Source of the DNA: a virus
Taxonomy: Duplodnaviria; Heunggongvirae; Uroviricota; Caudoviricetes
Virus record (IMG/VR): IMGVR_UViG_2778261639_000012
DNA: 8,712 nt
Strand: one strand, 5' to 3'
The position numbers were made by a program, and so were the translations under genes. Shown piece after piece: positions 2,937-5,700 of this stretch. The notes beneath the pieces are model-generated. The model was not told the origin of the DNA. It saw nothing but the letters and a program-made list of their open reading frames with translations, and ran no database searches. Position 1 is the first letter of the stretch. The number at the start of each line of letters is the position of its first letter.

Positions 2937-3227
2937 TTATTCCTGAATGCGCTTAAACTCGATTACCCACACCCAGGGATTAGCGTTCCAGCTTTCTTCA
3001 CCATAGATGGATTCCCACAGGTGCTGGAACGCAACCTTGGCCATTGCGAAATCCCTCTTGGGAGTAAGGAATGTTCCCGGGTGATCAGGAAGCAAACTTC
3101 CAGCAGGCGGAACGCCCTCAGCCCTTGCATCGCATTCGCTGATATCGTTCAACCGTTCAACGCGCACGTTGGTAATTTCCAACAGAATGGTGATGCCCAT
3201 CGCGGCATGTGAATTGATGGACGCCAC
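2937..3227 (-). CDS. ASCH-domain protein, C-terminal fragment (96-aa ORF; probably the 3' part of a frameshifted gene)
   Basis: C-terminus SIYGEESWNANPWVWVIEFKRI resembles the terminal beta-strand signature of ASCH proteins (compare E. coli YqfB ...DIYPGQTQFYVIEFK, recalled from memory). Starts only at a GTG with no Shine-Dalgarno, inside the 3' end of ORF 3149..3664. Confidence 0.45.
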   Translation of the reverse strand: MASINSHAAMGITILLEITNVRVERLNDISECDARAEGVPPAGSLLPDHPGTFLTPKRDFAMAKVAFQHLWESIYGEESWNANPWVWVIEFKRIQE

Positions 3228-3664
3228 CCACCATCAAACTTTTCATTCACAGTGTGAGGTTTCCAGTCGGCATCATCGGGTATCGACCATAAGCCGTAAT
3301 CACCAGGTTTTTGCTCACAACTGGCCCGATAAATCCTTGCTGCGTTCTTCTCATCGCCACGACAAAGGTTGTCGTTCCAGTCCACACTGCAACCATCTTC
3401 ATTGCCTAATATCGTCCATGTTTCACGAACCCAAATTCGATCGCCGACGATACCAAAGGGGCAATTGAAAACACTGCTTACACCATCAGCCCCGTACCAC
3501 TGAAAACCTGCACCAATTTCCCTAACCATCACTGGTGCTTCTGGACCAACTTCCGCAGGCTGATTTTTCATTATCCGCCGCGTCTGCGTTTTCCTTCCTT
3601 CGAGGATGGCTCGGACCATCTCATCGTTGAAAATCATGCCGCGCTCTTTCACTTCGCCTTTCAT
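3149..3664 (-). CDS. ASCH-domain protein, N-terminal part (171-aa ORF)
   Basis: ATG at 3664 with AAGGGGGA just upstream; N-terminal FNDEMVRAILEGRKTQTRR matches the ASCH GxKxxExR-type motif. ORF ends at 3149 in a different frame from the 96-aa ORF that carries the matching C-terminal ASCH strand. Confidence 0.6.
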   Translation of the reverse strand: MKGEVKERGMIFNDEMVRAILEGRKTQTRRIMKNQPAEVGPEAPVMVREIGAGFQWYGADGVSSVFNCPFGIVGDRIWVRETWTILGNEDGCSVDWNDNLCRGDEKNAARIYRASCEQKPGDYGLWSIPDDADWKPHTVNEKFDGGWRPSIHMPRWASPFCWKLPTCALNG

Positions 3665-3673
3665 GCATCCCCC

Positions 3674-3760
3674 TTACCCATGCGCGACGATGCCGCCAAA
3701 AGTGATAGAGAACAGCCAGAAATAGATCGCGGCCATAATGATTTTGAATGCCGTGTTCAT
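3674..3760 (-). CDS. Small hydrophobic peptide (28 aa, MNTAFKIIMAAIYFWLFSITFGGIVAHG), predicted single transmembrane helix
   Basis: Translated by hand. ATG at 3760 preceded by AGGAG with 8-nt spacing; TAA stop at 3676..3674, 9 nt before the ASCH gene start. Below the ORF-track length cutoff. Almost entirely hydrophobic/aromatic. Confidence 0.5.
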   Translation of the reverse strand: MNTAFKIIMAAIYFWLFSITFGGIVAHG

Positions 3761-3787
3761 ATTTTCAGCTCCTGTGATTGATTGGAT

Positions 3788-3820
3788 ACATGCCGCGCCT
3801 TGCGGCATGTTTTTATTTTC
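3788..3820 (+). terminator. Intrinsic-terminator-like hairpin oriented on the plus strand
   Basis: Stem ACATGCCGC (3788-3796), loop GCCTT, stem GCGGCATGT (3802-3810), then TTTTATTTTC (3811-3820). On the minus strand the hairpin is not followed by a U-tract. Confidence 0.5.
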
Positions 3821-3829
3821 ACTTTCTCT

Positions 3830-3859
3830 GTTTTAAAAATCAAGATTTATTAGAGCAAT
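3830..3859. repeat. 30-bp element GTTTTAAAAAT-N6-TTATTAGAGCAAT, copy A
   Basis: 26/30 identical to 5971-6000. Abuts the stop codon (3859-3861) of the HAD gene. Confidence 0.8.
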
Positions 3860-4365
3860 TATTGTTGATGGAGAAGCGCGTTTTCATACTCCCTGACCAT
3901 TAACGTAAGTACGCCGTGACTCCTGAAAACACGCGCCACGTCAATCTTATCTTCCAGCGCGAACGCAATTTTACTTAGACCAATTTTCTTCAGGAGATCA
4001 ATCTTTGCTGGACCGTCATTTCTGTCATCGGTGGCAGGACGCATAGATAGCAAAGGCTCAGTCCCATTTGTTACGTGCTTACGCAACCAGGCTCGTGTTT
4101 TATCCCTGGCTATCTCACAGCGCCCGGTTACAAACCAGAGGGTGTAAATGCCGGACAACTGGCGCACCATATCAATAACTGGAGTGATGGGAGCATCAGT
4201 GTCACAGGCAAGGTTAAACTCGTTCCAGTGCTCTGTTAATGCACCTTTGCCAGGTGGTGGAAGTAAATGCAGCCTGTCTTCCGTTGCCTCTGATATCGTC
4301 CCATCAATATCTACTATGACGATGTACGGACGTTCCTGGTGTGCGTGTTTATTGAAAATACTCAA
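3859..4365 (-). CDS. HAD-superfamily phosphatase-like protein (168 aa)
   Basis: Motif I DIDGT (IVIVDIDGTI) near the N-terminus, Thr motif II (WFVTGR), downstream Lys and acidic (EDKID) motifs consistent with the HAD fold; resembles phage polynucleotide 3'-phosphatase/nucleotidase domains. Only start is TTG at 4365, with GAGGAGG about 4 nt upstream. Confidence 0.6.
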   Translation of the reverse strand: MSIFNKHAHQERPYIVIVDIDGTISEATEDRLHLLPPPGKGALTEHWNEFNLACDTDAPITPVIDMVRQLSGIYTLWFVTGRCEIARDKTRAWLRKHVTNGTEPLLSMRPATDDRNDGPAKIDLLKKIGLSKIAFALEDKIDVARVFRSHGVLTLMVREYENALLHQQ

Positions 4366-4382: not shown

Positions 4383-4418
4383 CGAAAAAAATGCTGGTGG
4401 GAGCACTCCACCAGCATT
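4383..4418 (-). terminator. Rho-independent terminator (minus strand)
   Basis: 11-bp perfect stem AATGCTGGTGG (4390-4400) / CCACCAGCATT (4408-4418), 7-nt loop, followed on the minus strand by a run of about 7 T. Lies between the 420-aa gene and the HAD gene. Confidence 0.65.
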
Positions 4419-4437: not shown

Positions 4438-5700
4438 TCAGCGAACGTAAATAGTGCCGCCGTTCTCTTTTTCCCATGCATCGCTACGTGCATAGCAAAC
4501 ATCGAGAAGTCTTCTTGCCGCAGTTTCCTCTAAACCCAATTCGACAACCAACTGCTCATGACGGCGGGTAACCACATCAAACAGGGTATGCAGCCCTTTA
4601 GTTGCCAGATCATCAATGAATTCCGGTTCGAACGGCAGCTCTGCATCTGCCAACATAACCTCTTGCGCCCACTCAACTCGACGGACCAATTCCGGGCGGC
4701 GGCTTTCCATCTCTTTACAGATCAATTCATGGAAGAACTCTACCCAACCTTCCGGCTGGAACTCGCGGAAAATTGCCAACGGCTGGAAGTTTGGCATCAA
4801 CCATTCGTTGATTCGGATATCAATGGCATAGCCCATGTCGCAGCAGAACTGATAAGCAAAGTCCAGCTTAGACACGATATAAGGACGCTCGTTATTGAAC
4901 TCTTTAGGCGATGAGATCCCATAAGCCAGGAGGCGCGGGAAGAAGGATATTTGCCCTAACGTCGGATGAAGTTTGCTTGCAGGGAAACGGCGCTCAGTAA
5001 TGCCATACATTTCCTTCTTGAGCGTCGCAAATTTGGCATTCTCATTAACCAGCGCGGTAACCTCTGCTTTTTTATTAGCAAATGCCACGCGCGCTTCGCT
5101 TGCATCTTTAATAGTTTTTTTGAGCTGTTGGTTAAGGTCGGCGACCTGCTTACGCAGTTCCTGTCGCTCGCTTTTAGCTTTGTTATAGCGTTTCTCAAGG
5201 TTAAAAGGATCAAGTTTCATGATCTCTTTATATTGAGATTTTAGCGTTGAAATCTGTGAGTTCCGCAGTTCAACCATCGCGGTCATTTCATTGAGTTTTG
5301 TTTCCAGCTCAATGCTTATACGTTCGGCATTATCAGCACGCTGGTTGGCGTCATGCGTCGCATCGTCGATCGCGTCCTGTTGCTGGCGTTTCAAATGTTC
5401 AATTTGCAGCTGAAGCTCTTCAATTTCTTTATCCTTCAGACCGAGATCCAACTGCATATTTTCAGCTGCATCTACCAGGGAGTTATGGCTATCAGCTTCT
5501 GCGTTATAAACATCAATAAGCTGTGCGTGAAGCATCTCCGCTGACTGAACCGCATTATCAAAAAAACGCGCTGTGAGGTCATCACAACTAACGCGGCGTT
5601 GCGCGGCCCGGATGTTCTGGATAATGGCCGGGATACCGGCATTCAGGACGTCAGGGATAGATACATTTTCGATTGATTGGTTTTGTGCTGAAGTGATCAT
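4438..5700 (-). CDS. Hypothetical phage protein, N-terminal coiled coil plus C-terminal globular domain of unknown function (420 aa)
   Basis: Long ORF; residues about 80-250 are heptad-rich and charged (EIEELQLQIEHLKRQQQ..., ELRKQVADLNQQLKK); C-terminal 170 aa rich in aromatics with no recognisable catalytic motif. Start ATG at 5700 is 1 nt after the stop of the upstream 72-aa gene. Confidence 0.7.
   Translation of the reverse strand: MITSAQNQSIENVSIPDVLNAGIPAIIQNIRAAQRRVSCDDLTARFFDNAVQSAEMLHAQLIDVYNAEADSHNSLVDAAENMQLDLGLKDKEIEELQLQIEHLKRQQQDAIDDATHDANQRADNAERISIELETKLNEMTAMVELRNSQISTLKSQYKEIMKLDPFNLEKRYNKAKSERQELRKQVADLNQQLKKTIKDASEARVAFANKKAEVTALVNENAKFATLKKEMYGITERRFPASKLHPTLGQISFFPRLLAYGISSPKEFNNERPYIVSKLDFAYQFCCDMGYAIDIRINEWLMPNFQPLAIFREFQPEGWVEFFHELICKEMESRRPELVRRVEWAQEVMLADAELPFEPEFIDDLATKGLHTLFDVVTRRHEQLVVELGLEETAARRLLDVCYARSDAWEKENGGTIYVR

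Follow-up and report, generated by a model that had tools for sequence, protein, structure and literature searches.

A 28-codon open reading frame (ORF) on the minus strand of IMG/VR virus record IMGVR_UViG_2778261639_000012 (8,712 nucleotides, referred to here as the window) is very probably, judged from its sequence and that of its relatives, a genuine small membrane-protein gene. We lean towards the interpretation that it forms the leading cistron of the early operon repressed by C1 at Op88 and encodes a single-pass membrane micro-protein. The order of C1 operator, hairpin, AATCAC-GGAGC and ATG at this position is common to five clades of P1-like elements. In the relatives the ORF carries a coding signature, and the stem of the hairpin in front of it varies between clades by paired changes.

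The 28-Codon ORF and Its Translation Start

A preliminary description of this stretch had proposed a minus-strand ORF of 28 amino acids (aa) with an AGGAG-N8-ATG start and one transmembrane helix, and both features were confirmed. The start codon, ATG 3760–3758, is preceded at a distance of 8 nt by a Shine-Dalgarno (SD) sequence, AGGAG, at 3773–3769. The Kyte-Doolittle hydropathy of the peptide reaches a 19-residue maximum of 2.1, and the single predicted transmembrane segment covers approximately residues 7–26. No ORF of at least 25 aa with an AGGAG-N5-9-ATG start and a 19-residue Kyte-Doolittle mean of at least 2.0 was found in shuffled sequences (0/300). The leader around the SD is unpaired in folds of the hairpin alone and partly paired in a 165-nt fold, and the motif AATCA(C/T)NGGAGC is retained across all clades despite diverged flanks.

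The gene is annotated elsewhere as a 44-aa "hypothetical/membrane protein" (WP_001312275.1 in RefSeq; AMR60016.1, "membrane protein", in SJ46), a sequence present on at least 1000 contigs. The RefSeq start, ATG 3808, lies inside the hairpin and lacks an SD, a 2-nt insertion in the loop (at least seven loci) and deletions in the spacer shift it out of the frame of the ORF, and the sister clades have no ATG there. For these reasons ATG 3760 is preferred, and on sequence grounds the 28-aa reading is the defensible one over the 44-aa call. The exact 28-aa form is annotated in a few GenBank genomes (EIL21725.1 and others). The gene had been described as unannotated, which is true of the P1 reference (AF234172/NC_005856); elsewhere it has been called as both 44-aa and 28-aa proteins.

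Homologues in Other P1-Like Elements

The 28-aa peptide had no Pfam or NCBIfam match at E ≤ 10, and its best match in PHROG (E 0.16) was to a family of unknown function. Relatives were found through Cronobacter phage JK004, which has a 71% identical Pap. Here, the operator ATTGCTCTAATAAATAT is followed by a hairpin, by CCAATCAATCACCGGAGCC and by the ATG of a 53-aa ORF (MHLIFKLAITAFYAWMLTVVITSFKPDANMKASRYLGNLSASYDCDQQGDDSL), the stop codon of which overlaps the ATG of the next gene. The JK004 peptide and profile searches yielded three more 53-aa variants and one 48-aa variant, located at the equivalent position on P1-like contigs of 17–94 kb, some of which lack pap. The operator is kept in JK004 and in loci L092–L096 and L101 of our comparison.

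The peptides align in register with the P1 form, with M1, K6, A11 and W15 invariant and the hydrophobic run retained. Among the 53-aa forms, the ratio of non-synonymous to synonymous substitution rates (dN/dS) is 0.22–0.39, and 12 of 21 and 19 of 39 differences fall in the third codon position. A 37-aa variant from the P1 clade (L104) ends in the tail YQNEDAPKK; compared with the tail YQNDAP of L101, it shows synonymous differences only, plus one codon indel. Because the layout is conserved, the peptides are in register and the relatives display a coding pattern of substitution, we take the family to encode a genuine protein whose N-terminal transmembrane segment is conserved and whose hydrophilic tail varies. 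The 28-aa form that is common in P1 would then be the version that lacks the tail.

The ORF is kept where pap is absent and where the whole of variable region 8, the pmgT–humD segment of P1-like phage-plasmids (PMC9603915), is absent. In the two sister clades without pap (L096–L101), the operator–hairpin–small ORF unit directly follows pmgS; the unit is therefore independent of pap. In L104 (2501–2760), a P1-like contig without variable region 8, humD-phd-doc begins ≈120 nt after the small ORF.

Other routes to distant relatives were less productive. Only P1-like elements were returned by a word-indexed search with the 44-aa and 53-aa peptides and by a complete HMMER profile search; the latter, of 1.84 billion representatives, gave eight matches, all from the same two P1-like groups. 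With Pap as the anchor, matches at ≤41% identity were unrelated T1-like and other phages, leaving JK004 as the only useful one. The Pap of L093 had no match in IMG/VR, and a DNA pattern of operator and leader found nothing in IMG/VR and a single JK004-like metagenome contig.

Operator, Promoters and Leader Hairpin

The 701 bases around the ORF are 100% identical to several E. coli plasmids of ≈95–108 kb, including pCFSAN004176P_03 and O111:H8 plasmids, and 97.3% identical to bacteriophage P1. By these identities the window is assigned to a P1-like phage-plasmid. In the P1 GenBank record (AF234172/NC_005856), the ORF falls in a 194-bp gap between pap and pmgT, for which the record gives a monovalent C1 operator, OpmgT (formerly Op88), and two predicted σ70 promoters, P1pmgT and P2pmgT, and neither a gene nor a terminator. 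The same operator is annotated in P7. (Window coordinates equal those of L001 plus 399; the P1 operator is annotated at L001 3444–3460.) In the sister clades, a TTGATT or TTGTTT element, separated by 17 nt from GAAAAT, AAGAAT, AATAAT or CAGAAT, recurs at the equivalent place when the sequences are read by eye.

The preliminary description had also noted a G+C-rich hairpin upstream of the SD, with a U-tract on the plus strand. This structure is present, with arms at 3810–3802 and 3796–3788 and the tract TTTTATTTTC at 3811–3820. A stem of at least 8 bp with at least five G/C, followed by at least eight T in 10, arose in 1 of 100 dinucleotide shuffles of the 8.7-kb window (both strands). The stem has 9–10 bp, six of them G-C pairs, closes a loop of AAGGC and begins 5 nt past the −10 element of P1pmgT. 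In all clades, the stem begins 3–8 nt after a predicted −10, which is itself 17 nt from a TTGATT-like −35.

The stems are unrelated in sequence between clades (CAUGCCGC, AAGGCCAC, GGCCGC, UUGGCAGUCAC), yet always paired. The arms are ACAUGCCGC/GCGGCAUGU in the P1 clade, AAGGCCAC/GUGGCCUU in L101, GGCCGC/GCGGCC in JK004 and UUGGCAGUCAC/GUGACUGCCAA in L092, and the hairpins of L093, L095 and L096 are variants with G·U pairs. With the register set by hand, compensatory double changes were found at five stem positions across the five clades. (MAFFT misaligned the hairpins of different clades, which made RNAalifold uninformative, and the count is a manual one only.) We interpret these stem differences as compensatory covariation.

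The hairpin is the dominant element of every sense-strand fold. It does not dominate most of the antisense folds, and several clades fold differently on that strand. Five stem substitutions keep pairing, with G·U allowed, on the sense strand only, compared to one on the antisense strand only, a bias that is suggestive and not statistically significant. JK004, L095, L092/93, L096 and L101 retain both the ORF and the hairpin, often with a different fold on the opposite strand; in four sister clades, the first 10 nt after the hairpin on the opposing strand contain only 3–5 U, compared to 8 in the window. Since the stem covaries and dominates the sense folds, and since the U-tract is absent or marginal in the sister clades, we conclude from the comparison that the conserved function of the hairpin is most probably exerted on the sense RNA.

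Stem-loops at the 5′ ends of bacterial and phage mRNAs can protect the message from 5′-end-dependent decay. The hairpin resembles such elements, of the type found in the ompA 5′ untranslated region (UTR), in its position near the predicted +1, in the unstructured leader and SD that follow it, and in the compensatory changes across five clades. It differs from them in that the start here is a predicted one and in that the P1-clade DNA also forms a terminator on the opposite strand. A 5′-proximal stabilizing stem-loop is the most economical reading, in which both the role and the start site are putative. A terminator on the sense strand was rejected, as no U-tract follows the hairpin in any clade. 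Regulation of the leader by the P1 C4 antisense RNA was likewise discarded: the annotated target motifs, TTGACAG and GTTAGTGC, are absent from it. The four non-P1 clades (L091 3528–3549; L092, L093, L096 and L101) have a 9-nt loop of similar sequence (ACGCUAUCA, GCACUACCA, GCGCUUCCA) on differing stems, whereas the P1-clade loop is a different one, of 5 nt. The shared 9-nt loop hints at a sequence-specific loop contact.

Taken together, these elements suggest the following course of events. When C1 leaves the operator, transcription would start a few bases upstream of the hairpin or inside it, placing the stem-loop at or near the 5′ end of the mRNA, where it would protect the message from decay. 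The unstructured, conserved leader with its strong SD would direct translation of the peptide, and ribosomes that finish 9 nt short of the following start codon (in relatives, on an overlapping ATGA) would be handed over to the cargo gene that follows. The conserved N-terminal transmembrane segment would carry the peptide into the inner membrane. Within the P1 clade, the region of the hairpin would, in addition, keep the conserved pmgS–pap block insulated from the cargo.

Variation within the P1 Clade

We retrieved 88 P1-clade loci that carry the region, a fraction of the roughly 900 E. coli and roughly 590 plasmid copies; the SD-ATG could be located in 86 and the 3′ end of the ORF in 81. The 28-codon ORF is intact, with no frameshift or stop, in 84 of the 86, and the other two turn into unrelated sequence after codon 19. 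Identical peptides are encoded in 66 of the 86, and the ORF is free of indels even though these occur in the adjoining hairpin loop and spacer. From 3800 to 3640, spanning the hairpin, the small ORF and the first eight or so codons of the next gene, there is a trough in nucleotide diversity (π = 0.002–0.006, compared to 0.044 in pap and 0.08 in the downstream gene), ≈5–10 times below the flanks and affecting all codon positions. The trough lies at the left edge of variable region 8.

Several observations count against the interpretation that we favor. Within the P1 clade, variable sites in the ORF are spread evenly over codon positions 1, 2 and 3 (5/4/5), and six synonymous changes stand beside nine non-synonymous ones, including the radical replacements G22D, L16Q and G28R. 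By comparison, pap, used as a positive control in the same alignment, has 23/11/64 variable sites (64 of 98 in the third position) and 64 synonymous to 42 non-synonymous changes. The diversity trough is better accounted for by constraint on the nucleotides or by a recent sweep through recombination than by simple selection on a protein. Confinement of the family to P1-like elements makes for a small comparative sample. In the literature searched, data on a transcription start, transcript, ribosome occupancy or peptide for the ORF were not found, and the promoters are predictions; two RNA sequencing studies of P1vir do not report on the region, on antisense transcripts or on small ORFs, and no paper in our search mentions the peptide or its accessions. 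Finally, in the window itself there is no plus-strand gene within 3.6 kb that would need the terminator.

Because codon-position bias is missing and some changes are radical, the 28-aa form could be a tolerated truncated remnant, not a selected protein. On this account, which we hold to be unlikely though the most serious of the alternatives, an ancestral gene with a hydrophilic C-terminal tail (37–53 aa) was cut after codon 28 by cassette exchange at the border of variable region 8, and the stub, perhaps still translated, is kept only for the leader, SD and coupling site that it offers to the downstream gene. In its favor, the longer homologues have tails under selection, homology among relatives repeatedly breaks at 3670, 4 nt after the stop of the small ORF, or at the stop itself in L104, and the P1-clade substitutions cannot be distinguished from neutral ones. 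Against it, the ORF is open and unchanged in 66 of 86 loci, clear of the indels next to it, with diversity far below that of nearby synonymous sites, and it is kept in the 21 loci that have a convergent hsdR and no sense gene after it. The neutral-looking substitutions favor the stub, while the unbroken frame, the very low diversity and the retention without a following sense gene favor a function for the 28-aa form.

Conservation of the 3800–3640 nucleotides is fully explained by none of the models, nor by protein coding alone. The trough reflects either nucleotide-level constraint or a recombination linker bordering variable region 8. It resembles the boundary ("linker") sequences of mosaic phages in being a low-diversity island at the left edge of this region (PMC9603915), with recurrent breaks near the ORF stop. 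Unlike anonymous linkers, this boundary holds an ORF that looks translated, together with a structured RNA element.

Proposed Coupling to the Downstream Gene

In the 81 loci with a located 3′ end, the ORF stop is followed by an ASCH-domain gene with various C-terminal parts in ≈59, by a convergent type IC hsdR in 21, and by another sequence in one. In the window, the next ATG lies 9 nt past the stop; in the sister clades, the stop overlaps the next start (ATGA). In the minimum-energy fold, GGGGGAUGC (3673–3665), which includes the SD of the next gene, pairs with codons 16–18 of the small ORF. This arrangement would suit a regulatory leader ORF, in which the act of translation opens a helix that hides the SD of the next gene, for coupling or control, and it would agree with nucleotide conservation that spans the ORF and the first eight or so codons of the next gene. 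We nevertheless regard it as distinctly improbable that the act of translation is all that matters. Purifying selection acts on the amino acids of the 53-aa clade, tail included, and the hydrophobic segment is kept across clades while the nucleotides diverge. The fold has a z-score of only −1.9, and where hsdR is convergent the ORF persists without a following gene to which it could be coupled.

The Probable Plus-Strand Terminator and Convergent hsdR

Read on the plus strand, the hairpin and T-tract form an intrinsic terminator motif, a G+C-rich stem-loop followed by a U-tract. The antisense-oriented terminator of the preliminary description thus holds up in part: the plus-strand motif is strong by sequence, but the element is conserved only as a sense-strand hairpin, as the opposing T-tract is restricted to the P1 clade and falls there on the predicted −10 of P1pmgT. 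In 21 of the 81 loci, the convergent hsdR ends ≈80 nt beyond the ORF stop. The sole hairpin between hsdR and the ORF in these loci has no U-tail, and the next terminator-like site is 3788–3820. The plus-strand terminator probably works too, as a secondary use of the hairpin peculiar to the P1 clade. In the P1 clade, the hairpin and the A-rich −10/start region would terminate transcription converging from the cargo, for example from hsdR, before it reaches pap and pmgS; transcription of hsdR would cross the small ORF in antisense and end ahead of pap.

A fossil of this arrangement occurs in ≈280 IncF-type plasmids of E. coli, Klebsiella and Salmonella, in which an 84-bp remnant of the small ORF is found directly downstream of type IC hsdR (L006/L007/L008, ≈4001–4084, equivalent to window 3670–3753), cut at nucleotide 8 of the ORF by the IS1 end GGTGATGCTGCCAACTTACTGAT. 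By its sequence, the IncF hsd cassette evidently came from a P1-like phage-plasmid.

A more elaborate possibility, to which we give little credence, is that the peptide is a membrane-active early-lytic effector, for example one that depolarizes the membrane or interferes with the host, gated by C1 at Op88 and, in the hsd-carrying quarter of the loci, by the 3′ UTR of hsdR. This UTR would be perfectly complementary to the peptide message and end at the 3788–3820 terminator, giving an "excludon"-like convergent switch. If so, derepression of Op88 would send antisense transcription into hsdR and bring restriction down as the phage turns lytic, while read-through from hsdR would silence leaky peptide mRNA in the lysogen. 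The logic would be like that of a type I toxin-antitoxin (TA) system, with an mRNA 3′ UTR in place of a dedicated small RNA.

The likeness to type I TA loci that the preliminary description had raised was not upheld. According to this very improbable reading, the peptide is a membrane toxin, and a plus-strand antisense RNA that starts within the ORF or past it and is ended by the 3788–3820 terminator blocks its translation or triggers decay of its message. As in ibs/sib, hok/sok and ldr/rdl, the peptide is shorter than 60 aa with one hydrophobic helix behind a strong SD, and the opposite-strand terminator of the P1 clade lies just upstream of the ribosome-binding site, where Sib RNAs end, so placed that an antisense RNA would cover that site. 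Nucleotide conservation of the ORF, SD and hairpin is unusually high, as in hok/sok-type loci, the hsdR 3′ UTR would be a natural antisense partner in roughly a quarter of the relatives, and there is a −10-like CATAAT at 3734–3739. This hexamer, however, has a poor −35 and is the sole plus-strand promoter candidate, in agreement with what had been noted before. No σ70-like site scored at least 9/12 at 3300–4300, and none scored at least 8/12 in a second scan, which leaves none from 330 nt beyond the ATG to the hairpin; nor did any antisense promoter keep its position across seven loci chosen to represent the five clades. Four sister clades that retain the ORF and hairpin lack the opposing U-tract or have a marginal one, and what looks like a T-tract is the −10 of the sense promoter seen from the opposite strand. 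The ORF also differs from known type I toxins in its setting. It is repressor-controlled through a C1 operator, whereas their promoters are usually constitutive; it heads a polycistronic operon, with its stop coupled to the gene that follows; and no long structured 5′ UTR hides its SD. It has neither sequence similarity to these systems nor a match to a toxin family in Pfam, NCBIfam or PHROG. Rfam gave no antitoxin RNA; its only match, to GcvB at 3733–3816 (E 0.44; 20 bits against a gathering threshold of 42 bits), was taken as chance because the terminator and a U-rich stretch account for it. Annotation of the locus as a TA system is not supported.

The suggested likeness to phage Kil peptides fails for want of homology: neither the profile search of 1.84 billion representatives nor Pfam or PHROG linked the peptide to λ Kil, Rac KilR or P1 KilA/Icd. 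Kil, KilR and Icd are not known to be single-helix membrane peptides. By analogy, the ORF may still be compared with the small early-operon proteins of temperate phages (λ and Rac Kil, P1 Icd) as a short product that would be made early in the lytic cycle when the repressor is inactivated. In the same comparison it may be likened to its neighbors pap and pmgT, which are dispensable for plaque formation by CRISPR interference (CRISPRi) and amber data (PMC10695390).

Surrounding Features

The features of the locus are listed in Table 1. All long ORFs of the window are on the minus strand, and pap is the last gene ahead of the operator–hairpin–ORF element. A frameshift near 3195 divides the ASCH-domain gene into ORFs of 171 and 96 aa, whereas pCFSAN004176P_03, otherwise 99.4% identical, has a single coding sequence of 242 aa; either the gene is a pseudogene or the frameshift is a sequencing error. 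Another strong intrinsic terminator, in the sense direction, is found at 4390–4418 (−), between pmgS (4438–5700) and pap; its arms, GCTGGTGG and CCACCAGC, make a Chi site on both strands. A second ATG ORF with an AGGAG at similar spacing starts at 167 (−) and runs off the end of the window after at least 55 aa (MALTHHELCQIAYKFLKRNGFKV...); this ORF, at 1–167, probably belongs to a real gene truncated by the edge of the window.

Table 1. Position, strand and basis of assignment of the features at the Op88 locus (window coordinates).
Feature	Position	Strand	Basis or remark
pap, 3′-phosphatase/5′-polynucleotide kinase-like HAD gene	3859–4365	−	ORF list; pap in P1, P7 and SJ46
C1 operator Op88/OpmgT, ATTGCTCTAATAAATCT	3843–3859	−	P1 and P7 annotation; 1-base overlap with pap stop codon
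Predicted σ70 promoter P2pmgT	−35 TTGCTC 3858–3853; −10 TAAAAC 3835–3830	−	P1 GenBank record
Predicted σ70 promoter P1pmgT	−35 TTGATT 3843–3838; −10 GAAAAT 3820–3815	−	P1 GenBank record
T-tract, TTTTATTTTC	3811–3820	+	Follows hairpin; complement of −10 GAAAAT plus AAAA
Leader hairpin, ACAUGCCGC-AAGGC-GCGGCAUGU	3788–3810 (arms 3810–3802, 3796–3788)	−	Sense folds, conservation
Translation-initiation leader, CCAATCAATCAC-AGGAG-CTGAAAAT	3761–3785	−	Conserved, unstructured
28-codon ORF, MNTAFKIIMAAIYFWLFSITFGGIVAHG	3674–3760 (ATG 3760–3758, TAA 3676–3674)	−	Translation; homologues at same position
GGGGGA Shine-Dalgarno and ATG (3664–3662) of next gene	3662–3673	−	ATG 9 nt past small-ORF stop
ASCH-domain gene (pmgT/upf86.8 type), first gene of variable region 8	2937–3664	−	Frameshifted in window

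Significance

An uncharacterized gene for a small membrane protein that opens a repressor-controlled phage operon is of a familiar kind, and the practical consequence is modest because plaque formation does not require the neighboring genes and the family is a narrow one. The analysis gives a corrected start, at 28 aa as against the 44 aa of RefSeq, and a candidate membrane micro-protein; it explains the hairpin as part of the leader, conserved at the constant border of a cargo hot-spot, and it removes a tempting toxin-antitoxin annotation. P1 is a classical model among phages and much used in genetics, yet its reference annotation is without this ORF, which is found in hundreds of sequenced phage-plasmids of clinical and veterinary E. 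coli, Salmonella and Klebsiella. If the proposed interpretation is correct, the peptide would be the first thing translated from one of the few early promoters under C1 control.

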